DNA of 64,000 nucleotides from Candidatus Thorarchaeota archaeon. Lineage in GTDB: Archaea > Asgardarchaeota > Thorarchaeia > Thorarchaeales > Thorarchaeaceae. A program made the position numbers and the translations under genes. The stretch is from assembly GCA_048882325.1 (NCBI GenBank), contig JBHLRS010000003.1:1-64000 (forward strand), given 5' to 3'. The stretch's first letter is position 1, and the number at the start of each line of letters is the position of its first letter. Positions 1,804 through 19,139 of this stretch are shown here, in pieces. The notes beneath the pieces are model-generated. The model was given only the letters and a program-made list of their open reading frames with translations. It did no database searches and was not told the DNA's origin.

Positions 1804-3288
1804 TTAGTCAACCCCCTTCATACGCCATAATATAGCCGCAAATACTACACAGACTGCAATCCATATCAAGGGTGCCGCTAATTCCAAGAGACTTCCGACA
1901 GCATAGAACCCGTTGAGTATGATGAATGCAAGTGCAATAATGATACCTATGGGTGAGATTACCTTGACCACCCACTGGTACCAGCTAGGTAGTTTAATGT
2001 CCCCAGCCTCATTTGCTGCATCCAAAATCTTTGATCCGCCCCAGACCCAACCCATGATTATCATCATGAATAGAGCGACTAGAACAAGACCGAAGTTCTC
2101 AACATAATAGTCGAAGATATCAAGGAGGAATAGACCCCACGTGACATCACCTAATCCTCCATCTGCTGTTCCAACGTCCATCCACAATGTGAATGGAACT
2201 CCACCAAGAAATAGGAGGATGGTGATTGCAATCACAGTCTTCGATCGTGGCCATCCAAACTTGTCCATCACCGCTGTGACTATAGCCTCTACTAAGGATA
2301 TAGCACTCGTTACACCAAGGAATACCATCATTAAGAAGAAAACAAAACCCAAGATGTTTCCTCCTGGTATTATCATTCCTCCAGGCCAATTAACAAATGC
2401 AAAGCCTACACCGCCTCCGCCGAGAAAACCGGCAGTGGCTGCAATTGTGAAGACTGCCATTCCTGCAGTGAATGCGAATGTGGTATCAAGTAGGCTTGTT
2501 GTAATTGCGCTGTTGGTAAGTTCGCCACGTCGCGGAAGGTAGCTCGCATAAGCGGTTAATGCTCCCATTCCTGCACTTAGTTTGAAGAAGCTCAATGAAA
2601 CCGCAGTTGACCACATATCTGGATTTAAGAACTGCTCTACATCTGGGTTCAGGTAGAAGTCTAAACCTGCTGACGCATTTGGCTGAGCCAGACCCCAGAA
2701 CGCCATGAAGATGATGATTATCCACATTAATGGGAACAAAATCATCACTGAGCGTTCGATACCTCTTGTTCCAAAGTAGTCGATGATGAAAACAACCAAC
2801 CATACCACTATGAGCCCAACAAGGACTATTGGAGACATCAACATGTTCACGAAGAAACCAGGTTGATCAGTGAACGCTGATGGTCCCATTGGACCAGCGA
2901 GTTGTAGTCCAGTGATGGCATATCCAGCATAGACCGCTGCATATCCAATCAACACGGTATAGAAGGCTGTGAGAATTGCTGTATTAACCAGGCAGAACCA
3001 GCCAAGGAATTCACCCAACGGATGAATTCGTTTGAGCGCGCCTGGGAATCCTCTTCTAAAGGTTGAACCCAGAACGAACTCTGTCAGCACAACAGGAATA
3101 CCTACCAAAGCTAGCATAATAAGGTAGATGAACACGAATGGACCGCCACCTAAGACAGACACCTTAAACGGCCAGTTCCATACGTTGCCCAATCCTGTCA
3201 TGGAACCCCAGACCGCGAAAACGAAACCCATACGGGTTACCCAGGTTTCACGGGCTACTTCCATCTCTACAGAAGTTTCTTCTCCCAT
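1804..3288 (-). CDS. Sodium-dependent transporter, neurotransmitter:sodium symporter (SNF/NSS) family
   Basis: RETW..RMGF...GLGNVWNWP...GGGPF motif, SFFKLSAGMG, AYASY; ~12 TM. Confidence 0.92.
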   Translation of the reverse strand: MGEETSVEMEVARETWVTRMGFVFAVWGSMTGLGNVWNWPFKVSVLGGGPFVFIYLIMLALVGIPVVLTEFVLGSTFRRGFPGALKRIHPLGEFLGWFCLVNTAILTAFYTVLIGYAAVYAGYAITGLQLAGPMGPSAFTDQPGFFVNMLMSPIVLVGLIVVWLVVFIIDYFGTRGIERSVMILFPLMWIIIIFMAFWGLAQPNASAGLDFYLNPDVEQFLNPDMWSTAVSLSFFKLSAGMGALTAYASYLPRRGELTNSAITTSLLDTTFAFTAGMAVFTIAATAGFLGGGGVGFAFVNWPGGMIIPGGNILGFVFFLMMVFLGVTSAISLVEAIVTAVMDKFGWPRSKTVIAITILLFLGGVPFTLWMDVGTADGGLGDVTWGLFLLDIFDYYVENFGLVLVALFMMIIMGWVWGGSKILDAANEAGDIKLPSWYQWVVKVISPIGIIIALAFIILNGFYAVGSLLELAAPLIWIAVCVVFAAILWRMKGVD

Positions 3289-3601
3289 CACGTTTACCTC
3301 ACGCGGATGTGAAAATTAAAGAAAAGTGTGGATACGGCGCTATAAGTCGTTTTTGGTCCATTTTCTTGTTATTTCAATCATCAAAATTCCATGTTTTTTG
3401 AGAAATTGTTAATATTTCGGGTGATATTCAACTTCTCTGGTTCATCTGTTTTTCAAGTGTATTGATGAGATATTCGATCTTCTCACTACGAACAAGTGAT
3501 TTCTTCGACACACCTTTCAAATTCTATCTTGATTCCAATTTATTCGTCCTTTGTCTCGATAGATTTATTCACTCTAATCGATTCTACGAAACTGTATAGG
3601 A

Positions 3602-4348
3602 TTGGATCAATTGAGTCGTAATGAGTTCAATTCACGATGGGAAAATGATGAGGTTCTCGTAGACATACCCTTCAGTGCTGCTGGCGTAGCTACCACAATT
3701 ATCCTGACGTCGAAATTCACAGGGAAAATGATGTTGCTTGATGTTGGAGACGGTGTTCTAAGAGACCTCTTGCTTTCTGGAAATACCGATTTTGTACATG
3801 CCATCGATCCTATTGCAATCTCGCACGGTCATTTCGACCATGTAGGTGGTCTTCATTCATTATTCGGATTCATGCGAATGCTGAATAGAACCGCACCTCT
3901 CAATGTTCTAATTCCTGCCGGATGTGAGGAAGCAATTAGCATCATCAAGGGGTATCGGGACCTCTATCATACTACTCTTCCCTTCAAGATATGGTATCAC
4001 GAGCTCTCACAAGGTTCAGGCTTTGATACTGATTTCTTCAAGGTAAAAGCATACGAGGTTGAACATTTCTCCCTCGAGTTTGACCCAGGTTCAGGAGTTC
4101 TTGAACCAGCTCTTGGATTCAGAGTGCAGATTGGTGGTTCCTTAGTTGCATATTCAGGCGACACAAGGCTCTGTTCGGGTGTTGAAACAGTTGTTAGAGA
4201 TGCTGATTTGGCAATTATTGAAGCCACAAAGAAAGAAACGCCTGCAAGTGGAAATCGTGTTCATTTGTCAATTCAAGAGGCTGAAAAGTTAGGAAAACTT
4301 GCTAAGGACTATATCTTAATCCACAAGATACCAGAACTTCCAACTTGA
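3602..4348 (+). CDS. MBL-fold metallo-hydrolase, RNase Z/BN-like
   Basis: LLDVGDG, SHGHFDHVGG, YSGDT, IIEAT, HL, LIH motifs. Confidence 0.8.
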   Translation: MDQLSRNEFNSRWENDEVLVDIPFSAAGVATTIILTSKFTGKMMLLDVGDGVLRDLLLSGNTDFVHAIDPIAISHGHFDHVGGLHSLFGFMRMLNRTAPLNVLIPAGCEEAISIIKGYRDLYHTTLPFKIWYHELSQGSGFDTDFFKVKAYEVEHFSLEFDPGSGVLEPALGFRVQIGGSLVAYSGDTRLCSGVETVVRDADLAIIEATKKETPASGNRVHLSIQEAEKLGKLAKDYILIHKIPELPT

Positions 4349-4352
4349 ACGC

Positions 4353-5399
4353 TTATAGTACAGGGACAAGATATTGAATCAATGCATAGACTGGAAACGT
4401 GACGACGAGTGAGATTGGAACTGTAATAATCCAAGAGATGATGATATCCCTTACCTGTTTCATACGTACTGGTGCGTTTGCTACATATCCCACTGCGATT
4501 AGAGCCGCAACAAGCACATGTGTGCCACTGAGAGGGAGCCCAAAATACGTACCGACGAACATGATTAGCGAAACCGAAACGCTAGCTGAGAGCGCAGAGG
4601 AAGGTGACAAAGTCACTACTTCTGTTGCTAGGACCTTGATGACTTTCCGACCTACAACTATCAATCCACATCCCATTCCTAGACCACCCACAAGCAATGG
4701 GACATAAAAACCAGGAATCAAGACAGGTCCGAGAGCTACTGGTGTACTAAACAATGGCAGACTCACAAGAGGCGCTACAGCGTTTGCTACATCATTTCCA
4801 CCACGGCTCAATCCTGTTAGTATTAGAAATGCGGCTAGTCCGTATGCTGCTATCTGCTCCTGCCTCTCCCTTCCAGAAAGTCCTTCAGCTCTTTTCTGCA
4901 CACGTCGGACCAAGGAGAAAACAGCAGCTGCGATGAAGAACCCAATGAGAGGGGATATTATCCAACCTGCAAAGATCTGAATGAGCACTCCAATGTTTAT
5001 TGCATCAGCTCCCCACTCGGAGGCACCAACAAAAGGTGCTACAATAGCCACACCAATCACTGAGCCAACGATGCATTGTGTAGTGCTTATCGGAAGACCC
5101 TTAGTAGCAGAGGCAATCAATAACCAGATTGTCATTGAGATGAGAATGGCAAAAACCATTTGTAGGGAAAGCTCATTTCCAGTCACCAGATCGGATCCTA
5201 CCTTTTCAGAAACACTTCCACCGAGAGATATTGCCCCTACCAGATTGATGGTTGCACCAATGAGTACTGCTAATCTCAGACTGAAGACCCGAGCTCCAAC
5301 AGCAGGACTCATGGTTTCATCATTACTTCCAATCGCAAATGCAACAACGAAGGCGACTGCTAAAAGTATGAGGGCCACTGGTTCCAAGAGGATATACAC
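4353..5399 (-). CDS. pit: Inorganic phosphate transporter, PiT family
   Basis: GSND and GGNDVANA signatures, GLPISTTQ, GLPLSGTH. Confidence 0.9.
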   Translation of the reverse strand: MYILLEPVALILLAVAFVVAFAIGSNDETMSPAVGARVFSLRLAVLIGATINLVGAISLGGSVSEKVGSDLVTGNELSLQMVFAILISMTIWLLIASATKGLPISTTQCIVGSVIGVAIVAPFVGASEWGADAINIGVLIQIFAGWIISPLIGFFIAAAVFSLVRRVQKRAEGLSGRERQEQIAAYGLAAFLILTGLSRGGNDVANAVAPLVSLPLFSTPVALGPVLIPGFYVPLLVGGLGMGCGLIVVGRKVIKVLATEVVTLSPSSALSASVSVSLIMFVGTYFGLPLSGTHVLVAALIAVGYVANAPVRMKQVRDIIISWIITVPISLVVTFPVYALIQYLVPVL

Positions 5400-5404
5400 T
5401 CCAG

Positions 5405-6067
5405 CTATGAGTATTTGATTGCTAACTCTCTGATGTAGTCTCCAGCAAGCTCTGCCTTGATAGCGACGTCCAGCACCCTTTCTGAAACACTCTTGAAAAA
5501 GTGCACATCAGGTGCTTTGAACTCAGAGGTCCTGAAGAGTTTCTTGAGAAGGTCAAATTGAAGGTCCCGAGCTTCTTCTCTCACGAGGTCAAGCTTACGA
5601 GTCATTTCTACCGATTTTTTGAAGTCCTTGAAGAGATATTTCACTGCATCTTGAAGGAGGTCTGTGCATATCCAGCATTTCTTAGCTATATCTTCAATCT
5701 CTTTCGGAGGTGTCATTCCCCTCCCAACTGCTATCATTCGGATCGCATCCTCTGCTGCGTCTATAACTCCATCCAAGTGACTCGAAAGTATATGACGTTC
5801 TTGAGCTTGCTGCGGTAGGAATGCACGTTCAGTAAGTATCTTCTCAACTAGATTCTCCTTCATCCTGTCAGCTTCTCTCTCGAGTTCGATAATCTCCTTC
5901 TCAAGCTCATCTAAAGTGTCGTTCTTACCTTCAACCCAAGATTCAGCTGCAACGTGCATCTTAGCACTGGCTGACTGTAGAGCTTTACTGAGCTTAAGTA
6001 GACATTCCTCTGCCTGCTCCTGAAGTTTCTTGTCTCCTGATCCTAAGATCTTCGAGAATGTTCCCAT
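5405..6067 (-). CDS. DUF47/PhoU-like phosphate transport regulator
   Basis: ELEREADRMK motif, helical; immediately upstream of PiT. Confidence 0.85.
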   Translation of the reverse strand: MGTFSKILGSGDKKLQEQAEECLLKLSKALQSASAKMHVAAESWVEGKNDTLDELEKEIIELEREADRMKENLVEKILTERAFLPQQAQERHILSSHLDGVIDAAEDAIRMIAVGRGMTPPKEIEDIAKKCWICTDLLQDAVKYLFKDFKKSVEMTRKLDLVREEARDLQFDLLKKLFRTSEFKAPDVHFFKSVSERVLDVAIKAELAGDYIRELAIKYS

Positions 6068-6155
6068 TATCGTTAACTCCTGAAGAAACCAATATGCTAT
6101 CGCTTTGCAATTGCTACTTCAGGGCACCAAATAGACCTTGTGTCTGAGATAGAAA

Positions 6156-7937
6156 CTAGGAGGTATCTTCGACTGTTGCTCTAATACGTACAATTCCTGC
6201 TCCAATCTTCTTCTGTTGGCCAATCTTAAACCTTCCAAGATTTCCAGTACGCTCAACATGTGGTCCACCACATAGTTCCATACTGAAATCACCAACAGAG
6301 TACACTGACACAGTTTCTCCATAGTTCTCTTTGAAGAATGCTAGTGCTCCTTTCTTGATTGCCTCATCATATGGAAGGAACTCTTGAGTGACCTCAAGGT
6401 CTTGATTGATGATGTCATTCACGATTTTCTCGACTTCTTCTATCTCTTCAGGAGTCAATTTCCTCGAGAAGGTGAAATCAAAACGTAGCCGCTCTTCTGT
6501 GATGTTACTACCGTTCTGAGTAACTTCATCTCCGAGTACTCTTCTCAACGCTTCTTGCAAAAGGTGTGTGGCTGTGTGAAGTTTCACAATCTTCTCACTG
6601 TGTTCAGCTAAACCTCCCTTGAATTTGCCTTGAGTTGCTGTTCTTGATATCTCCCTATGTTCCTCGAACTGCTTGGTGAACTCATCAATGTCGATTTTGA
6701 TTCCTTTCTCTTCTGCTAGGTCTCTTGTCATTTCTAATGGTAAGCCAAAACTTGTGAAGAGGAGGAACGCGTCAGCTCCAGTTATGGTTCCTGTTTCACT
6801 GTAGATTCTTTCGAATCTCCGTATCGCTTTACTGAGTGTCTTTCTGAACTTGGCTTCCTCAGAAGTGAGATTGGTCATGATGAATTCCTTGTTTCGCTCA
6901 ACTTCTCCGTAAAGATTCCTGAACATGTCAATGACAATCTCAGCAAGAGAGTTCATGAATCCTTGACCAATACCAAGGCTGTCAGCGCTATGAATTGCTT
7001 TTCTTAGCAGTCTCCGCACAATGTATCCCTGCTCTACATTAGAAGGGCCAATCCTTCTGTCGTCAGCCATAATCATGACTGCTGATCTAACATGGTCAAC
7101 TATAATCCGAATGAGACGCTCATTCTCAGATGTGAAGTCTTCTTTGTCAGCCAGTTCTTTGACATGGCTGATCAGAGGCTCGAAAAGCTCAGTATCAAAT
7201 ACCGAAGGAACACCTTGAAGCATCGCTGTTGTCCTTTCAACACCCATACCAGTGTCTATACTCTTCATTGGCAGAGGTTCATATGTCCCATCATCCAACT
7301 TGCGATAACTCATGAAGACATCGTTCCAGACCTCCACAAAATGTCCACATTCACAACCAGGTCTACAATCAGGACCGCACTTTGGAATCTCATCGACTTC
7401 AATGAACATCTCTGAACAGGGACCACATGGACCACTGTTTCCTGCAATCCACCAATTGTCCTCTTTATCTAGGAAGTAAATTCTCTCATCAGGAATCCCA
7501 ACACTACGCCATGCATCTGCAGCTTCGTCATCTCTCGGGGAGTCCTCATCTCCTGCAAATACAGTGACTGACAGCTTCTCCGGATTGAAACCAAGATACT
7601 TCTTTGATGTGAGGAACTCATAACTCCAAAGAATCGCTTCCTTTTTCCAGTAGTCACCTAGGCTCCAGTTACCAAGCATTTCAAAGAAAGTAAGGTGTGT
7701 AGTGTCACCAACCCCTTCAATATCCGTAGTACGGACACACTTCTGGACATTTGTCAGACGTTTCCCCTCAGGATGGGGTTGCCCCAACAGATAAGGCACC
7801 AAGGGATGCATACCTGCAGAAGTGAATAATACTGTCGGATCATCTTCTGGAAACAGTGATGCTGAAGCTATCACTGAGTGTTTTTTATCTTTGAAGTATT
7901 TCAAGTACATATCTCTCAGTTCTTTAGCCTGCATCAT
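6156..7937 (-). CDS. alaS: Alanine--tRNA ligase, short form (no C-Ala domain)
   Basis: DPTVLFTSAGMHP, HLTFFEMLGNWS, IDTGMGVER, HTATHLL, ELCGGPHV; ends after editing domain. Confidence 0.95.
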   Translation of the reverse strand: MMQAKELRDMYLKYFKDKKHSVIASASLFPEDDPTVLFTSAGMHPLVPYLLGQPHPEGKRLTNVQKCVRTTDIEGVGDTTHLTFFEMLGNWSLGDYWKKEAILWSYEFLTSKKYLGFNPEKLSVTVFAGDEDSPRDDEAADAWRSVGIPDERIYFLDKEDNWWIAGNSGPCGPCSEMFIEVDEIPKCGPDCRPGCECGHFVEVWNDVFMSYRKLDDGTYEPLPMKSIDTGMGVERTTAMLQGVPSVFDTELFEPLISHVKELADKEDFTSENERLIRIIVDHVRSAVMIMADDRRIGPSNVEQGYIVRRLLRKAIHSADSLGIGQGFMNSLAEIVIDMFRNLYGEVERNKEFIMTNLTSEEAKFRKTLSKAIRRFERIYSETGTITGADAFLLFTSFGLPLEMTRDLAEEKGIKIDIDEFTKQFEEHREISRTATQGKFKGGLAEHSEKIVKLHTATHLLQEALRRVLGDEVTQNGSNITEERLRFDFTFSRKLTPEEIEEVEKIVNDIINQDLEVTQEFLPYDEAIKKGALAFFKENYGETVSVYSVGDFSMELCGGPHVERTGNLGRFKIGQQKKIGAGIVRIRATVEDTS

Positions 7938-11605: not shown

Positions 11606-13255
11606 ATGACAAATCGAATTGTTGCTCAAGCTTCAGAAGATGTTGACCTCTCTCATACAAAGACTGTCGTTGATCAGGAAGAGATTGCAGACACATATGC
11701 TCTGTATCTGGATGATGAGAGTCATTCTTTTGATGGCACAGCTGAGAAGATAATTTTCCCCACGACTGAGGCTGAGGTTGCTACAATAATAAAAGAGGCC
11801 TTTGCCAGTAGGACTCCAGTCACTATTCAAGGTGGTAGAACAGGTCTCACTGGTGCTGCTGTGCCTCTTGGCGGAATTGCTTTGAACCTCGAAAAAATGA
11901 CTCAGCTTCTATACATGAATTATGACGAGTCTGAAGAAATGTATTCAATCGCAGCTCAATGTGGCATGACTCTTGAAGACCTTGTCGAAACGGTGCAATC
12001 AAAGAAGCTCGACAAGTTATCAGGGAAGGGAACTCCCGAGCAACAAAAAGCACTGGAACGATTTCTTGGAGAAACAGACACATTCACTTTTCCAGTTGAC
12101 CCTACTGAAATGAGTGCATGGCTGGGTGGTATCGTGGCATGCAACGCATCAGGTGCAAGAACATTCAAGTATGGCGCTGTGAGATCATGGGTGTGCCATC
12201 TACGTGTGGTTCTGGCAAATGGCGATATTCTCGATATTGAACGCGGTCAGGTGAAGGCTGATAATGGCAAGTTTGTGATTGTTCTGAGTGATGGTTCAGA
12301 AATCGAAGTTACTGTCCCGTCTTATAAAATGCCAAGCACTAAGAACGCGGCTGGTCTCTATGCAAAACCAGACATGGATCTCATTGACCTATTTGTAGGT
12401 TCAGAAGGTATCCTTGGTGTAATAACAGAGGTTGAGCTTGGTCTAGTCAAACTTGAAGAGAACATCATGACTGTAATGGCCTTCTTCCCCAGCATTGAGG
12501 ATGCCGTCAATTTTACAATTGATGTTCGTGCTCCAGACTCACCTATCAAGATGGATTTCCTCGAGTACTTCGGGTCCAATGCAATTGAGATGATAAAGGA
12601 AAAGGCTGGTGCAGCAGGAATCAAGGTTCCTGCTATGAAGGATGATACGAAAGCCATCATCTTCTTTGAATTCTCGTTCACATCGGAAAACATGGAAGAG
12701 CTGGTCATGGGCCTTGAGGAGATCCTCGTGAAGAATAACACCTCCTCTGAATCAAGTTGGGCTGGAATGGATCGTTCTGAACTAGCTAAGATGAAGACAG
12801 TCAGGCACTTTGTCCCTGAAACCGTAAACGGTATCATCGCCCAGAGAAAAGCAGAGTATCCTGAGATACATAAAATTGGAACTGATATGGCAGTCCCAAA
12901 TGACGCTATCAAGGGATACCTGGAGTATTACATATCAACACTTGAGGAACAAGGAATGGAATATGTGATGTGGGGGCACATCGGTGATAACCATATACAT
13001 GTCAACATGCTCCCTCGCAATAATGAGGAAGTAGAACAGGGGATGTCCAACTACATGACCTTCGCAAAGAAAGCTATTGAACTTGAAGGAACAGTTGCTG
13101 CGGAGCATGGCATTGGGAAGTTAAAACGAGCGTTTCTAGAAGCCATGTATGGTGAACAAGGTATCTCTGAGATTCAGGCTGTAAAAAGATCTCTGGACTC
13201 AAAATGGTTAATCAACAGAGGTAATATGATAGCTGTCCCTGGTGATCTGAGCTAA
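11606..13255 (+). CDS. FAD-linked oxidoreductase, GlcD/D-lactate dehydrogenase family
   Basis: GGRTGLTGAAVP, GSEGILGVITE, GHIGDNHIHVN, AEHGIGK. Confidence 0.88.
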   Translation: MTNRIVAQASEDVDLSHTKTVVDQEEIADTYALYLDDESHSFDGTAEKIIFPTTEAEVATIIKEAFASRTPVTIQGGRTGLTGAAVPLGGIALNLEKMTQLLYMNYDESEEMYSIAAQCGMTLEDLVETVQSKKLDKLSGKGTPEQQKALERFLGETDTFTFPVDPTEMSAWLGGIVACNASGARTFKYGAVRSWVCHLRVVLANGDILDIERGQVKADNGKFVIVLSDGSEIEVTVPSYKMPSTKNAAGLYAKPDMDLIDLFVGSEGILGVITEVELGLVKLEENIMTVMAFFPSIEDAVNFTIDVRAPDSPIKMDFLEYFGSNAIEMIKEKAGAAGIKVPAMKDDTKAIIFFEFSFTSENMEELVMGLEEILVKNNTSSESSWAGMDRSELAKMKTVRHFVPETVNGIIAQRKAEYPEIHKIGTDMAVPNDAIKGYLEYYISTLEEQGMEYVMWGHIGDNHIHVNMLPRNNEEVEQGMSNYMTFAKKAIELEGTVAAEHGIGKLKRAFLEAMYGEQGISEIQAVKRSLDSKWLINRGNMIAVPGDLS

Positions 13256-13260
13256 TTCCA

Positions 13261-13536
13261 TCAGATTTGGGCTTGAACCTCAGCCTCAGTCATCTTGGCA
13301 CAGAGGTCCGGCTCCTCCTCACAGAGTCTCTTCATATCGTGAATCCCAAAAACGCGCCAGTACTCATGAAGGGCCACTTCAAGTGTCATCGCATCACTTC
13401 CTTGACATTTTGTAACAACACTTCTTATTCCAGCAGCCAACTCCTCCACTGAAGATTTTCTGATTTTCACTCTTCCCCAGTAGTCGCAATAAGCGCCACG
13501 ACATGGACCCTTGACCATAACACAATACAATGCCAT
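13261..13536 (-). CDS. Small Cys-rich hypothetical protein
   Basis: 91 aa ORF, CVMVKGPCRGAYCDYW motif, fills the intergenic gap. Confidence 0.6.
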   Translation of the reverse strand: MALYCVMVKGPCRGAYCDYWGRVKIRKSSVEELAAGIRSVVTKCQGSDAMTLEVALHEYWRVFGIHDMKRLCEEEPDLCAKMTEAEVQAQI

Positions 13537-13663
13537 GAAAAAGCCTCTAATGCATTGAGGTCTGCGACCTCTTGCTTATCTTAAGGATTGTCTCAGGGAT
13601 GTCACTACCCCATTCTTGAAATAGCCTAATATCTAACACTGCAGAATTCTCGGTGAACCTGAA

Positions 13664-14014
13664 ATGCAAGATGAATCCGAATCGTCCGATATTGGTCCCA
13701 AAATACAGAAAGAGAAAGAAACTGTGGGTAAGATGATTCGCTTGTACTGCGAGAAGAAACACAGCTCCACAGGAGGAACTCTCTGTACCGAGTGTCAGAG
13801 TCTGTTAGAGTACTCTCACAAGAGGTTGGAGGACTGTCGTTATCAAGAGGATAAACCAACCTGCAGGAAGTGTCCTGTCCATTGTTACAGACCTACGATG
13901 AGAGATGAGATTCGACGTGTCATGCGGTTCTCTGGCCCTCGTCTAGCATTACGTGCCCCTATGGACTGGATTAGACACCAGATTCATGATCGAGATGATG
14001 TTGATTCTGAATAA
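13664..14014 (+). CDS. YgbA / nitrous oxide-stimulated promoter family protein
   Basis: EKETVGKMIRLYC, LCTEC, KPTCRKCPVHCY, VMRFSGPR. Confidence 0.9.
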   Translation: MQDESESSDIGPKIQKEKETVGKMIRLYCEKKHSSTGGTLCTECQSLLEYSHKRLEDCRYQEDKPTCRKCPVHCYRPTMRDEIRRVMRFSGPRLALRAPMDWIRHQIHDRDDVDSE

Positions 14015-14133
14015 AGTGCATGAGCGGTCACAGATTTGACATGGATGTTCCATGACCAAACTAACACAGACACTATACAGTAGTTGATTGGTGAAGTGAA
14101 ATTTCCTTTAACACTGAGTTTAAATAGTGAATA

Positions 14134-14150
14134 ACGTAATACTATTACGT
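14134..14150. promoter_or_regulatory. Perfect palindrome ACGTAATA-C-TATTACGT, putative operator of the RHH gene
   Basis: 8-bp arms directly upstream of a BRE/TATA (AAAAGAAATATAAG 14153-14166). Confidence 0.55.
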
Positions 14151-14208
14151 GAAAAAGAAATATAAGCATCAATGTCCTATAATTACATGAAGATCTGAGG
14201 TGAAAGAG

Positions 14209-14678: not shown

Positions 14679-15005
14679 CTAGGAATCAAGCATAAACCCA
14701 ATCACACCTGGGTTCTCTCCAGGCCCAATATAGAGAGGGACCGGAATATATGCATCATCTCGATGATGCCTGATGGCATCCTCTGTTGGAGTCGCGAAAT
14801 ACGGCTTATCTTCGTATATTCTGACCTGGTCTTGGGTTGTGGTCTTATCATCCACAGCCTCTTCTATGAACACATCAGCTGATAGATCAGCTGTCGCGTT
14901 CATGCTCATCCAAGCAATGCCGATCAGTGTTCCAAAAACAGCAACTGATAAGACTAGCCAGATAGCTGCTGCGAACCCGAGTCTTGCAGACCTCTTGCTT
15001 TTCAT
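14679..15005 (-). CDS. Small N-terminally membrane-anchored/secreted hypothetical protein
   Basis: Basic N-terminus plus one hydrophobic helix, GAGGAG SD at 15011-15016. Confidence 0.7.
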   Translation of the reverse strand: MKSKRSARLGFAAAIWLVLSVAVFGTLIGIAWMSMNATADLSADVFIEEAVDDKTTTQDQVRIYEDKPYFATPTEDAIRHHRDDAYIPVPLYIGPGENPGVIGFMLDS

Positions 15006-15299: not shown

Positions 15300-17102
15300 T
15301 CAGGAACTAAGAATCTCGGCTGCCTCTTTTGGTATCTCTCTGAAATCAGCGTCCTTGTCCTTTTCGTTGTAATAGACTACTATCTTCCTGTTTCTCTCAA
15401 TAATCCCTGAGTCATTCCATTCCATCCCTCTAAGGCGCGCCATCAAATCAATTGGATTGTACATCACATCAAGCAAAACATAGTGGTCTTCCTTCTCTCT
15501 GATTATTTCAGCTGCTGCTGATTCTGCTTTCAGGATGGCATCATACATCAGTTTTGGCTCACGATTCTGTTCAAACAGGGGTTCTATAATGCCTCGTGTA
15601 GATTCGATTGTGGCACCATAGTCGGTCAATGGCCAGAGTTTCTTTGGAAGTTCTATTTGTTCGATTTTGGCAGCCAAATGCTGAGTAACCTTCTCTCCAA
15701 GAATAGAATACGCAAACGCAAGGCTATGTGAAGCTGGACCACTCACTAAATGATTGAGATAGACATACCTAAGAAGAACGTGTCTAGGCGTTGGAATCCC
15801 TCCGTAATGGAAATATGCAGGGAAGATGAGTGGGTGCTTTTTGATTACCTCTCTGAGATCATTCCATTCTATAGGGGGAAAATTAGAATGACCTGGACTT
15901 CCCACATCATCATAGGCAAGGTCTTCATTTAACTCATCAAGAAGATTAGAACCAGGCTCAGGGACTAAGATATGGACCTGTGTTATCACATTTTTAAGAT
16001 CAAGAGACTTTGCTTTGAATAGACGTCGCCAAAGCATTTCAATATCGAAGAATTCCTCATCTGGAAATCCAACTATGAATGATAGGGTCACTGAAATTCC
16101 ATGATTAACAGCGTGACGCACACAATCAATCAATCTATCCAAATTGATTCGTTTGTTGATACTCTTTTGCATACGATCAGTAGCTGTTTCAATGCCCAAG
16201 AAAAGTCCAATACAACCGGCCTTACTCATTTTGGAGAGCAAGACCTCATCAATTGTATCAAGACGAGCGCTACAGCCCCATCTGACTGGTTTCTTTAGTT
16301 TCATCAGACGGTTGCATAACTCTTCCAAATACTCCCGATTGAATGTAAGGAGGTCGTGATTGAAATTGAAGGGACGATTTCCAAGCTCTTTCTGAACCAA
16401 CTCGACCTCTTCGATTACACGTTCAACAGATTTTATGCGAAATCTTCTGCTGAAATATTTTGAAGTTGAGCAGAATATACAACCATAGGGGCATCCTCGT
16501 CCTACCTCAAGAAGTACGGGCTGTTCCTCGTATTCCTTGTGTTTTGAGCATACGTTATAGGAGGGTATTGGCAACTCATCAAGATTCTCTATTGGATCAG
16601 GCCATCCATTATCTATTATCCGACCATTCTCTCGGAAAACCAGACCCTTAACTGAATGTTGTTTAACTCTACTGGTCAACTTGTTAATCCAGTCTGGTAA
16701 CGCTTGATCTGCCTCGCCTCGAATAATGGCATCAACTTGAGGGAACGCTTCAAGAACTTCTACAGCACAAAAGGATGTACCAGGTCCTCCAAGAACTGTG
16801 ATGATTTCTGGAAGCTCCGCTTTCACTCTCCGACACAACTCTAGTGCGATGATTAGATTGTTTGACATTGTCGAAAACCCTAGCACATCTGGATTCGATT
16901 CTACAATCACGTTTTTTATTGCATCAATTTGTTTTTCGAAATCTGGAGTGCAACCAAGATAATAGTTATACAGATTTATAATCTCGACATTGATTGAGTG
17001 TTCTCTTAGTGATGCAGCAAGAGCAAGAACTCCTAGACACTCCATCAGTGGGACTGGTTTTTCCATAGTGACCTGATGCGTCGCAACTAAACCTACTTTC
17101 AC
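15300..17102 (-). CDS. Cobalamin-binding radical SAM protein (class B methyltransferase-like), putative RiPP maturase
   Basis: N-terminal B12-binding fold (PDVLGFST...VLGGPG...DAIIRGEAD), GRGCPYGCIFC cluster motif, LGIETA, long C-terminal extension; GGAGGAGG SD. Confidence 0.9.
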   Translation of the reverse strand: MKVGLVATHQVTMEKPVPLMECLGVLALAASLREHSINVEIINLYNYYLGCTPDFEKQIDAIKNVIVESNPDVLGFSTMSNNLIIALELCRRVKAELPEIITVLGGPGTSFCAVEVLEAFPQVDAIIRGEADQALPDWINKLTSRVKQHSVKGLVFRENGRIIDNGWPDPIENLDELPIPSYNVCSKHKEYEEQPVLLEVGRGCPYGCIFCSTSKYFSRRFRIKSVERVIEEVELVQKELGNRPFNFNHDLLTFNREYLEELCNRLMKLKKPVRWGCSARLDTIDEVLLSKMSKAGCIGLFLGIETATDRMQKSINKRINLDRLIDCVRHAVNHGISVTLSFIVGFPDEEFFDIEMLWRRLFKAKSLDLKNVITQVHILVPEPGSNLLDELNEDLAYDDVGSPGHSNFPPIEWNDLREVIKKHPLIFPAYFHYGGIPTPRHVLLRYVYLNHLVSGPASHSLAFAYSILGEKVTQHLAAKIEQIELPKKLWPLTDYGATIESTRGIIEPLFEQNREPKLMYDAILKAESAAAEIIREKEDHYVLLDVMYNPIDLMARLRGMEWNDSGIIERNRKIVVYYNEKDKDADFREIPKEAAEILSS

Positions 17103-17145
17103 GTGAAAGCCCTCCTCCGAATAAACTTAGAATCCCTGGAACTGA

Positions 17146-17469
17146 TTAGGACAGTTTGCCAACAATATCTTTGAGGCCTGGGGGTCCAGGAGGTACCCAG
17201 TGTGGATGATCAGTTAAGAACTCGCCAATGGGGTCCCATGTCATAGCGACCCTCTTCCATTTTTGAGTATCAAAGAGATCGAATTGTTCCCAATCGATTT
17301 TTCCCAGTTTGGTAATTTCAGGTTGTTCCAGACGCTCCCAGATATCCAGTTGCTCTAACAAAGGCATTCCGTATTTAACAAGGGCTTTTCGAAAATCCTC
17401 ATCTCTTATCGCCGCCAGAATGATACCACGTGCAGCATCCTCTGAGCTTAATTTAGCTACATCACTCAA
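17146..17469 (-). CDS. NHLP/Os1348-clan leader-containing small protein, putative RiPP precursor
   Basis: AARGIILAAIRDEDFRKALV...LEQPEITKL resembles the nitrile-hydratase-like leader consensus; C-terminal tail TWDPIGEFLTDHPHWVPPGPPG; 43 bp upstream of the rSAM gene. Confidence 0.65.
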   Translation of the reverse strand: MSDVAKLSSEDAARGIILAAIRDEDFRKALVKYGMPLLEQLDIWERLEQPEITKLGKIDWEQFDLFDTQKWKRVAMTWDPIGEFLTDHPHWVPPGPPGLKDIVGKLS

Positions 17470-17651
17470 TAATCGTCCCTCTTCGTTTTCGTTGGCATGC
17501 TAGCCAAACCTGAAAGGGTCCTACTTATTATATCCTATCAAACTGTGCATAATCCCACAATTGTTTTTGAGCTGAAGGTCGTAATTCGAAAGACTCTTTT
17601 CCAAGGAAAGCGGTAGGTTACGGTTAGACACAACTAGGTAGGGTACAAGAC

Positions 17652-19139
17652 TTGAAAGCTCTAGGTACAGTCACAATGTATTATAGATTTCTTGACAGTG
17701 ACTCAAGAGATACACTTGATTTGGTGATGGACAAGTCAGTGAATTTCAGAGAGTTTGTTGTAAGTCTTGGGAAACATGTGGATTCCGCAGAAGTATCCCT
17801 ATCTCTTGCCCACATTGCTGCCGTTTTTGCTTGGGAACTTAGAGAGGTCGAAACCATCGAAAGAATTGCAGGTTGTAGTTTTGGAAGCGAGCCTGTGGTT
17901 AGACCTTGGACTTTCCCATTTAGGACAAGAAGCGATAGAATATCAACAGCTCATCTAATTGATGACGCAGTCGAATTCTCCCTTTCTACTAATCCCGAGG
18001 AGTGGATAAAGGCGGAACTTCTCCTTCTGAAGTCATATGTACTCCTTGAAACTCCTCAAGGTTCCTTGGCGTTAGAAGACGTAAAGCAACTTGTTGCATC
18101 GAATCCTGATCTATCATGTTTTAATTCCTATATCCATCATATTGATGCTCGAATCAGATATAGTGAAGGAAACTTAGCTAATGCCTTGCCCATATGCGAA
18201 ACTGGGTTAGACCTCGCGACAAAAACAGGGAATCTCTACCAGGCAGTCTGGCTCCATCGCTGGCTTGGGATGATGACAATGAATACCGAACCCAAGCTGG
18301 CAATTGCACAATTTGAACAGGCATATCAGATTGCCAAAGGTCTTGGTTCTCAATTTCATACTGAAGCTGTACTGACAGAAATGGGTTGGGTTTCTATTAT
18401 TCTAGGTGAGTACGACCTTGCGATTGCATTTTATGATGAAGCTCGTCAACTTGCATCTTCTCAAGATAGCCTGAGTGACCGTCATTCACTTGTCTTATCC
18501 AACGTTTGTAGTGACCTAGGGGATGGTCCACAAGCTCTAGATTGGGCAGAGTGGGCTCTTGAGTGGCACCTAATACATGGATCTGAAGGAGATTCATGGA
18601 CTCATTTGGCACTTGCAAGGGCACTGATTCTACTTGACCGATTGGAAGAGGCTTCTAAGCATCTTGATGCTGCTCGAGAGATGGCTTTTCGGAGTGGGCA
18701 GGAGAGAGAAATTGCCTTCTACTATCTTGTTTCTGGTCTGTATGAAACAGCTTCTGGCAATCCTCGAGAATCAATCAACATTCTTCAGAACGCTTTGGAA
18801 ATTTGTGAGCGGACAAACACTCAGATGTACCTTAATCGCTGTGTATTTGCGTTAGCATGCGCAGAGATGGAGTTGTTTAAACTGGAGGGAGGGGACGAAA
18901 CCAATGATTCTACAGGTCATTGGATGGAATACCTTGAAGAACTTGCACATAGTAGAAACCTCCCGGGACTTCTAATACAACACTCCTTGCTGAAGGCTGA
19001 ACTCCAAAAGTATCAGAACAGGTATGAAGATGCACGATCCACATTGATTGATGCCTTGACAATATATGACTCTCCTGGAGTAAAATCACTTCAAAATCAG
19101 GTTCTTGAGAAGATCAGAGAAATTGACACACGATTGTAG
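17652..19139 (+). CDS. Tetratricopeptide-repeat protein
   Basis: Repeated helical units (LAIAQFEQAYQIA, GEYDLAIAFYDEA, ESINILQNALEIC); N-terminus MKALGTVTMYYRF. Confidence 0.8.
   Translation: MKALGTVTMYYRFLDSDSRDTLDLVMDKSVNFREFVVSLGKHVDSAEVSLSLAHIAAVFAWELREVETIERIAGCSFGSEPVVRPWTFPFRTRSDRISTAHLIDDAVEFSLSTNPEEWIKAELLLLKSYVLLETPQGSLALEDVKQLVASNPDLSCFNSYIHHIDARIRYSEGNLANALPICETGLDLATKTGNLYQAVWLHRWLGMMTMNTEPKLAIAQFEQAYQIAKGLGSQFHTEAVLTEMGWVSIILGEYDLAIAFYDEARQLASSQDSLSDRHSLVLSNVCSDLGDGPQALDWAEWALEWHLIHGSEGDSWTHLALARALILLDRLEEASKHLDAAREMAFRSGQEREIAFYYLVSGLYETASGNPRESINILQNALEICERTNTQMYLNRCVFALACAEMELFKLEGGDETNDSTGHWMEYLEELAHSRNLPGLLIQHSLLKAELQKYQNRYEDARSTLIDALTIYDSPGVKSLQNQVLEKIREIDTRL

Follow-up and report, generated by a model that had tools for sequence, protein, structure and literature searches.

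A small protein gene and a radical S-adenosylmethionine (SAM) enzyme gene, side by side in a Candidatus Thorarchaeota genome, belong to a real, rare, fast-evolving and uncharacterized peptide-modification module of a broadly known kind. The stretch of DNA analyzed, referred to here as the window, comprises positions 1 to 64,000 of contig JBHLRS010000003.1 (64,000 nucleotides). Within it, the gene for a 107-residue protein precedes the gene for a cobalamin (B12)-dependent radical SAM enzyme, and a tetratricopeptide repeat (TPR) protein is encoded divergently next to them. We propose, with a probability of roughly 0.7, that the small protein is a substrate modified by the radical SAM enzyme and that the three genes form a peptide-modification module. 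Ribosomal peptide modification has barely been explored in archaea. The literature we searched contained no paper describing this module, and no radical SAM system for ribosomally made, post-translationally modified peptides (RiPPs) from Asgard archaea. With one peptide, one B12 radical SAM enzyme and one TPR partner, a clear candidate motif and a predicted docking surface open to mutation, the module offers a compact and testable case.

A recurrent pairing of small protein and enzyme genes

An earlier note, made from the letters of the window, described a 107-residue open reading frame (ORF) lying 43 bp upstream of, and co-oriented with, a 600-residue cobalamin-binding enzyme bearing a CxxxCxxC motif. 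The ORF coordinates, the Pfam domains and cysteines C204, C208 and C211 all bear this description out (Table 1). Since reading of the 43-nt spacer revealed no terminator-like element, the two genes probably form a bicistronic operon. The enzyme stop codon is followed by a T-run and an AT-rich stretch of ~200 nt before the next gene, and the divergent region ahead of the small ORF is a putative promoter region.

Table 1. Coordinates of the module and its parts in the window (AF2, AlphaFold2)
Feature	Coordinates	Strand	Basis
ApyD-like class-B (cobalamin-dependent) radical SAM enzyme, 600 aa, GTG start	15300..17102	(-)	Pfam, NCBIfam, AF2, Foldseek
C-terminal alpha/beta extension of enzyme, residues ~440-600, predicted docking site for peptide helical domain	15303..15785	(-)	Orthologues, AF2, complex model
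Radical SAM cluster motif C204-x3-C208-x2-C211 (CxxxCxxC)	16470..16493	(-)	Invariant in 7 orthologues
B12-binding domain, residues 20-136	16695..17045	(-)	PF02310, 65.8 bits (cutoff 32.1)
43-nt spacer	17103..17145	(-)	GGAGGAGG at 17111-17118, 8 nt ahead of enzyme GTG start (sequence reading)
Gene for precursor-like small protein of 107 aa, starting with TTG (coordinates include the stop codon)	17146..17469	(-)	ORF list; orthologues at 51% identity
Conserved, predicted-disordered segment, candidate modification site ('core'), residues 82-95, GEFLTDHPHWVPPG	17185..17226	(-)	AF2; conserved in P0010 and L115
Putative recognition ('leader') domain, helical and NHLP/Os1348-like, residues 9-77	17239..17445	(-)	AF2, NF038399, 6LK7 alignment
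Divergent intergenic region (putative promoter region)	17470..17651		TATA-like ATATAATAA at 17525-17533 (-); GAGGG ribosome-binding site at 17477-17481 before TTG (sequence reading)
All-helical TPR/MalT-like protein, 495 aa, divergent, conserved third member of the archaeal module	17652..19139	(+)	TPR_12 and TPR_MalT matches

Public gene callers report the small protein only as a 73-residue form that begins at an internal ATG (M35). The 107-residue form was accepted because a GAGGG element lies 7 nt upstream of the TTG, because the two closest orthologues (P0010 and L115:103-426, 51% overall identity to the window peptide) start upstream and keep the N-terminal motif, and because sister loci carry comparable Shine-Dalgarno-like elements, one of them also with a TTG start.

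The peptide, a single-copy gene in its own genome, is nearly invisible to direct searches. A word-indexed search of 5.8 billion proteins returned only the peptide itself, in its 73-residue form, and a single-sequence search of 87 genomes of the order gave no significant match. Homology became visible because the ORFs upstream of enzyme orthologues were collected first; the small ORFs were aligned as A1 and A3 and the enzymes as A2. Full-length enzyme orthologues with 44-47% identity occur in eight related genomes of three genera, and in all eight, the enzyme gene is immediately preceded by one or two small ORFs in the same orientation (two different ones in G048 and G037). The contig of a ninth orthologue, G064, ends within the small ORF. 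The pairing is also present on six metagenomic contigs (L113, L114, L115, L120, L121 and L123) and in four bacterial-type loci (L116, Leptospirales; L117, Lernaella; L118; L122), where one to three enzyme genes of this subfamily stand in tandem behind small ORFs of 79-95 residues. Small ORFs at the newly found loci, the bacterial ones included, score with the archaeal A3 profile. The pairing thus recurs at every orthologous locus examined and is more than chance.

When the 87 genomes of the order were searched with the peptide profile, all matches lay beside this enzyme, and the 78 genomes with neither a peptide match nor an orthologous enzyme hold no stray copy in the profile search; matches in the source genomes are circular, and the absence elsewhere is the informative part. 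As only 9 of the 87 genomes carry the module, it is accessory. The window DNA was also found in sediment metagenomes from two studies; among the sequencing runs listed as containing it, none is an RNA data set.

These data bear on the possibility that the small ORF is a chance or non-functional frame beside an enzyme of unrelated function. The 73-residue gene calls and the failure of the single-sequence search in the order would fit such a frame. Against it, reading frame, start region and both motifs are preserved in the orthologues at 51% identity, and the family profile, conserved position, ribosome-binding sites, strict co-occurrence and a passed complex prediction (see below) all speak for a functional gene, so that this explanation is effectively refuted.

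The earlier note had envisaged a two-gene system; in archaea, however, the conserved unit comprises three genes, for the peptide, the enzyme and the TPR protein. The TPR gene lies beside the enzyme in L105-L108, L110-L114, L120, L121 and L123, and is present in every archaeal-type locus with enough sequence, mostly divergent and upstream, convergent in G019 and twice in L123. Its N-terminal 165 residues are also TPR-like (Atlas structure), which makes the protein TPR/MalT-like along its whole length, and a domain scan detected no DNA-binding or catalytic domain. In the bacterial loci examined, large Pkinase-AAA_16-GAF-SpoIIE proteins stand in place of the TPR partner.

Enzyme lineage, leader domain and predicted docking

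The enzyme combines its B12-binding domain with a Radical_SAM domain (PF04055, residues 199-355, 73.2 bits, above the Pfam cutoff). Together with its class-B fold neighbors, this agrees with the maturase-type B12 radical SAM enzyme that had been proposed beside the small ORF. The previously remarked 'NHD' is present (H249, D250) and invariant among the seven orthologues compared. The C-terminal extension is conserved in all orthologues compared and confidently predicted in the AF2 model, which has a mean predicted local distance difference test (pLDDT) score of 87.7 and a predicted template modeling (pTM) score of 0.86. In this model, the C-terminal domain contains strands at 541-546, 572-579 and 584-590, plus helices. 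Residues 430-600 matched no Pfam family, and a lenient Pfam scan of the C-terminal domains of seven subfamily members found no relevant family and no PqqD/RiPP recognition element (RRE) model.

Among NCBIfam models, ApyD (NF050148) is the best match, with 314 bits over residues 22-453, followed by BchE (143 bits) and TIGR03975 (129 bits, cutoff 282). ApyD is likewise the best family for all eight archaeal and bacterial subfamily members tested (276-335 bits, against at most 134 for the next family), and in some members the alignment extends into the C-terminal region, to profile position 587 of 645. The closest characterized enzyme is therefore ApyD rather than PoyC, which had been named as an example. 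By these scores, the subfamily is a sister clade of ApyD and not ApyD itself.

Foldseek gave CysS, MgmA, TokK, OxsB, AprD4 and TsrM as top matches (E 3e-19 to 6e-17); CysS, MgmA, TokK and TsrM are methylases, whereas OxsB and AprD4 are not. Judged by sequence and predicted fold, the enzyme is a class-B radical SAM protein of a RiPP-associated lineage. Its full-length subfamily has ~50 cluster representatives, several of them named Candidatus Thorarchaeota by NCBI, which agrees with the probable Thorarchaeia origin suggested in the earlier note; the orthologues have identities of 44-71%. In a quick, midpoint-rooted tree, the subfamily is monophyletic with respect to more distant B12 enzymes, the loci with a TPR gene form one clade, and the bacterial enzymes in kinase contexts fall outside it.

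The window peptide belongs to a family of 16 sequences (alignment A3). AF2 modeling with A3 predicts confident helices over residues 9-77 (pLDDT ~85), disorder over residues 79-95 (pLDDT ~42) and then a short C-terminal helix. The helical domain holds the I16-V31 motif, which is as the earlier note had described it for the first ~60 residues and in which D23 and F26 are nearly invariant in the family, together with a mid motif, W44..L47..E51. Correspondingly, the small ORFs of A1 and A3 share an N-terminal helix motif, h-x2-[LM]-[LI]-x-D-x2-F-[RL]-x2-[LV], a mid motif, W..L(T).EE, and a motif at or near the C-terminus.

With respect to the tail, its distinct composition was noticed earlier, and the three tryptophans, HPHW and PPGPPG are indeed present. 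The tail is not merely odd, however, as G82-G95 is conserved in the two closest orthologues: its best-conserved part is the disordered stretch, with GEFLTD[HW]PHWVPPG common to the window peptide, P0010 and L115, and G82-G95 matches a family-wide C-proximal motif, [FYI]-h-T-D-[WH]. This tail type, the commonest of the few in the family, occupies the C-terminus or a position adjoining it (FFITD, YYFTDW, SSITDW, HFVTDH); tails of a second type finish with P-[AQ]-W-I, PASW or PQW. Homologous loci had been expected to pair a conserved leader with a variable tail. A leader ORF is present at all loci examined, but the tails fall into conserved motif types and are not free-form. The small protein is substrate-like in having a folded recognition domain and, after it, a conserved segment that is exposed.

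An affinity of the leader to the nitrile-hydratase-like leader peptide (NHLP) clan had also been claimed, and it holds at the profile level. In a scan of 18,950 models, seven of the ten family members match NF038399 (Os1348), with a best E of 5.6e-5 that is still below the cutoff. This is the best NCBIfam model for these seven, and on the window peptide it aligns over residues 17-66. Only 14 proteins at E <= 0.001 were retrieved when a hidden Markov model of A1 was searched against 1.84 billion representative proteins, and three of them are genuine members of the NHLP/Os1348 clan that pass its curated cutoffs (P0008 and P0014, TIGR03793, 245 and 112 bits; P0012, NF038399, 78 bits). Searched against PDB sequences, the A3 profile ranked nitrile hydratase alpha first (E 0.027), Os1348 (6LK7) second (E 0.075, aligned over positions 10-74, ~65 residues) and an NHLP-leader chain (9CJX) fourth; 9 of the 12 matches listed belong to the clan. 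In the bacterial loci, two neighbors carry precomputed matches to the Pfam Frankia_peptide model, which also matches Os1348 (PMC7726476). The curated cutoffs are not reached by any member, and on profile evidence the small ORFs are therefore a new, sub-threshold family or branch of the NHLP clan.

One of the retrieved clan members, P0012 (769 residues), is a membrane-anchored surface protein with an OmpL47-type barrel and four C-terminal repeats, each an Os1348-like leader module followed by an identical 'ELLCANGGPCG' segment. It resembles a surface protein to which a multi-core NHLP-clan precursor has been fused.

We modeled the peptide-enzyme complex from alignments A2 and A3, alongside three controls. 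The pair reached an ipSAE of 0.68, and the best of the three controls 0.00. In calibration, this score was attained by 58 of the 80 solved complexes and by 2 of the 110 mismatched pairs, counts that apply only roughly to the present pair, which was modeled from custom alignments. Between runs, at least 36% of contacts are the same, and partner pLDDT is at least 67. On the enzyme side, the confident interface comprises residues 454-459, 530-563 and 575-600, almost wholly within the C-terminal extension; on the peptide side it comprises residues 10-22 and 51-78. Enzyme residues 585-588, which form a strand in the AF2 model, contact peptide residues 71-68 in antiparallel register. This contact recalls the binding mode of an RRE, a domain of three helices and a three-stranded sheet that takes up the precursor as an extra strand, and the extension is at most a candidate for that fold. 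The earlier suggestion that the C-terminal extension could bind the leader is thus supported, short of demonstration, by the complex model.

Proposed modification and rival readings

In the proposed mechanism, the 107-residue product would be the precursor, and its helical domain (residues ~9-77), a distant member of the NHLP/Os1348/Frankia_peptide clan, would serve as the recognition handle. Docking of this domain on the alpha/beta extension would present the disordered, conserved G82-G95 segment to the active site, where the enzyme would modify it by radical chemistry. Since most characterized class-B enzymes, and ApyD, are C-methylases, we infer that the enzyme most likely C-methylates the peptide one or more times, at the aromatic T-D-[H/W] motif or beside it. 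The enzyme's reaction may also be new, because its subfamily is sister to ApyD, which has itself recently yielded new chemistry. The module encodes no leader peptidase or exporter; the product would therefore probably be an intact modified small protein, or one processed by a general protease. If intact and intracellular, such a product would make the distinction between RiPPs and small proteins modified after translation less sharp. The TPR protein would co-evolve with the other two and most likely bind the peptide. It could act as a peptide-binding scaffold or receptor, the receptor function being pure conjecture.

Several observations weigh against this proposal. In the modeled complex, no confident contacts link the core segment to the active site. 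The enzyme's 314 bits lie far below the ApyD cutoff of 750, so the equivalog assignment fails and the function of ApyD is not transferable to it, and chemistry other than methylation is also known in class B (OxsB, AprD4). The window peptide scores 14.1 bits against NF038399 (cutoff 40) and 12.2 bits against TIGR03793 (cutoff 50.9), and the other members of its family likewise stay under both cutoffs. It has no Gly-Gly or Gly-Ala cleavage site before G82-G95. The module contains no exporter, and a C39 peptidase (PF03412) was not found in the peptide's own 93%-complete genome, with seven control genomes positive. CobS (PF02654) was not found in that genome either, and cobalamin would therefore have to be scavenged.

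The organism may accordingly depend on scavenged corrinoids; its genome encodes several B12-binding radical SAM proteins.

Part of this evidence bears more directly on a classical proteusin-type RiPP, in which an NHLP-leader precursor would be heavily modified, cut at a double glycine and exported as a toxin by a C39-peptidase ABC transporter. The NHLP-clan affinity of the leader would suit such a pathway, as would the relationship of the enzyme to RiPP C-methyltransferases seen in its TIGR03975 match. Yet the leader stays below both curated NHLP cutoffs, the Gly-Gly/Gly-Ala site and the C39 peptidase are missing as described above, and ApyD fits the enzyme far better than a PoyB/C-type model does. 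No epimerase (PoyD-type), N-methyltransferase or transporter occurs in the module or its conserved neighbors, and no protease or exporter is adjacent to the window pair, as the earlier note had already observed. We regard a classical proteusin as very improbable.

A further alternative is that the small protein is not a substrate but a stable accessory or recognition subunit of the radical SAM enzyme, like the LigA-like/NHase-alpha-like domains in TglI, with the true substrate elsewhere, either the downstream membrane-anchored protein with variable repeats (see below) or a small molecule. In ECOD, the LigA-like domain of TglI, a recognition subunit, is classed together with NHase_alpha, Frankia_peptide and Nif11 (PMC12353581), the interface in the complex model is extensive and joins one folded domain to another, and the hypervariable repeats of the downstream membrane protein have a D-[FY]-[KR]-D flavor. 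In contrast, the family carries a conserved, predicted-disordered C-proximal motif that is often at the very C-terminus, as in substrates. Two small ORFs share one enzyme in G048 and G037, and in bacteria one or two ORFs accompany three enzymes in tandem, as is usual for precursor/maturase sets; the G060 and G019 modules have no membrane protein next to them. On balance, an accessory subunit appears unlikely, and we favor a substrate role for the small protein.

The substrate/maturase reading can be compared with several known systems. ApyD, of the aminopyruvatide pathway of Burkholderia thailandensis (NF050148), is an RRE-containing B12 radical SAM enzyme that methylates the C-beta of the penultimate Tyr of ApyA (PMC10635010). 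It shares with the window enzyme a B12-binding domain, a radical SAM core and a C-terminal extension, and its target aromatic lies beside a C-terminal Asp (YLYD), comparable to the aromatic/Asp motif, [FYI]-h-T-D-[WH], near the C-terminus here. Unlike in that pathway, no MNIO (ApyHI), P450 (ApyO) or methyltransferase ApyS lies near the window module. The precursor here is an NHLP-like helical protein of 77-139 residues, whereas ApyA was described as sequence-unique, and the host is archaeal, with a TPR partner.

Proteusins (PoyA-type precursors with PoyB/PoyC; TIGR03793, TIGR03975) resemble the module in combining a long, structured nitrile-hydratase-like leader with cobalamin radical SAM tailoring, and the bacterial relatives of the module have several tandem B12 enzymes per peptide. 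They differ from it in that the leader here, below the TIGR03793 cutoff, is without the canonical strand segment and the Gly-Gly end, in that epimerase, N-methyltransferase and C39 exporter are absent, and in the modest TIGR03975 score of the enzyme. Os1348 of Pseudomonas sp. Os17 (6LK7; NF038399; PF14407) is a similarly small, helical NHLP-clan protein of ~85 residues with a flexible C-terminus, and has been proposed to be a precursor modified by neighboring genes (PMC7726476).

Apparent divergence in place and neighboring genes

The three genes diverge steeply within conserved surroundings. Within the genus, flanking genes mostly share 79-89% identity, compared with 55-61% for the TPR protein, 46% for the enzyme and ~20% for the peptide; at the closest locus, identity is 79-87% in the flanks and falls to 71% in the enzyme and 51% in the peptide. 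In the quick, midpoint-rooted tree, the window enzyme, on a long branch, and that of L115 are together sister to the other same-genus enzymes (support 99), a placement that does not support ancient cross-genus alleles or outside import as the source of the divergence. The pattern looks like fast co-divergence in place and suggests selection for changing specificity. It is also of interest for the question of how these archaea, as relatives of eukaryotes, deal with one another or their neighbors.

In the polymorphic peptide-signal cassettes of Bacillus (ComQXP), precursor, modifying enzyme and peptide-binding partner diverge together much faster than the conserved flanking genes. Purely as an analogy, peptide, enzyme and candidate TPR partner co-diverge here in the same way, reminiscent of ComQXP and of TPR-type (RRNPP) receptors; unlike these, the archaeal module has no exporter, DNA-binding domain or kinase. 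ComX falls in the same ECOD homology group as NHase_alpha, Nif11 and Frankia_peptide (PMC12353581). Peptide, modifier and TPR protein might then constitute a co-diversifying specificity triad, in which the modified product is recognized by its cognate TPR protein and serves in kin recognition or signaling ('pherotype'-like), or as an intracellular regulatory switch, and not as an antibiotic. We consider this a speculative and rather unlikely extension; if true, a given chromosomal site would be occupied by different matched alleles from strain to strain within a genus.

The bacterial loci differ in organization. In L116:5274-10842, L118:6145-11823 and L122:1926-5911, three tandem paralogous B12 radical SAM genes follow the small ORF(s), and at loci of this type a ~1750-residue Pkinase-AAA_16-GAF-SpoIIE protein is encoded divergently. 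In L122, an S8/S53-type peptidase gene lies between those for the peptide and the enzyme, and a giant non-ribosomal peptide synthetase/polyketide synthase gene adjoins. We considered whether the TPR protein of archaea could be a shortened form of the bacterial kinase/AAA_16/TPR regulators and rejected this, as there is no specific homology.

Scanning of the window neighbors covered the TPR protein, a membrane-anchored protein, a 115-residue protein that received no assignment and YgbA_NO; the conserved partners of the enzyme are the TPR protein and the peptide only. The gene that follows the radical SAM gene (window 14679-15005, minus strand) encodes a 108-residue protein with a conserved N-terminal membrane anchor. 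Its sister proteins (L105:5881-6438, L106:6679-7167 and L107:6328-7122) have the same anchor and wholly different tandem repeats, for example four copies of a ~27-residue 'DAVRVIDFKD...' unit or many copies of 'VDRLVYFENA'. In L115:2507-2659 the protein is reduced to a 51-residue stump, and a similar anchored protein at the distant locus L123:8036-8341 ends in YRVITTD. The repeats faintly resemble the peptide tails.

Further out, sister loci (L115:3497-7481 and L106:~1900-6240) carry a four-gene [NiFe]-hydrogenase-like cluster (Fer4, FAD/NAD-binding, Oxidored_q6 and NiFeSe_Hases) plus DUF2769 between the YgbA_NO gene and the 115-residue gene. In the window (14015-14199) these two genes are direct neighbors, and the cluster is missing at this site.

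A recurring ~300-residue neighbor in the g12 and g9 loci was considered as a protease or exporter and rejected, being a multi-copy double winged-helix AsnC/HTH_24 regulator. It is absent beside the module in the window; members of this regulator family were found in two other genera, at L108:9795-10709, L110:11390-12400 and 13001-13924, L111:3437-4351 and L123:8452-9435.

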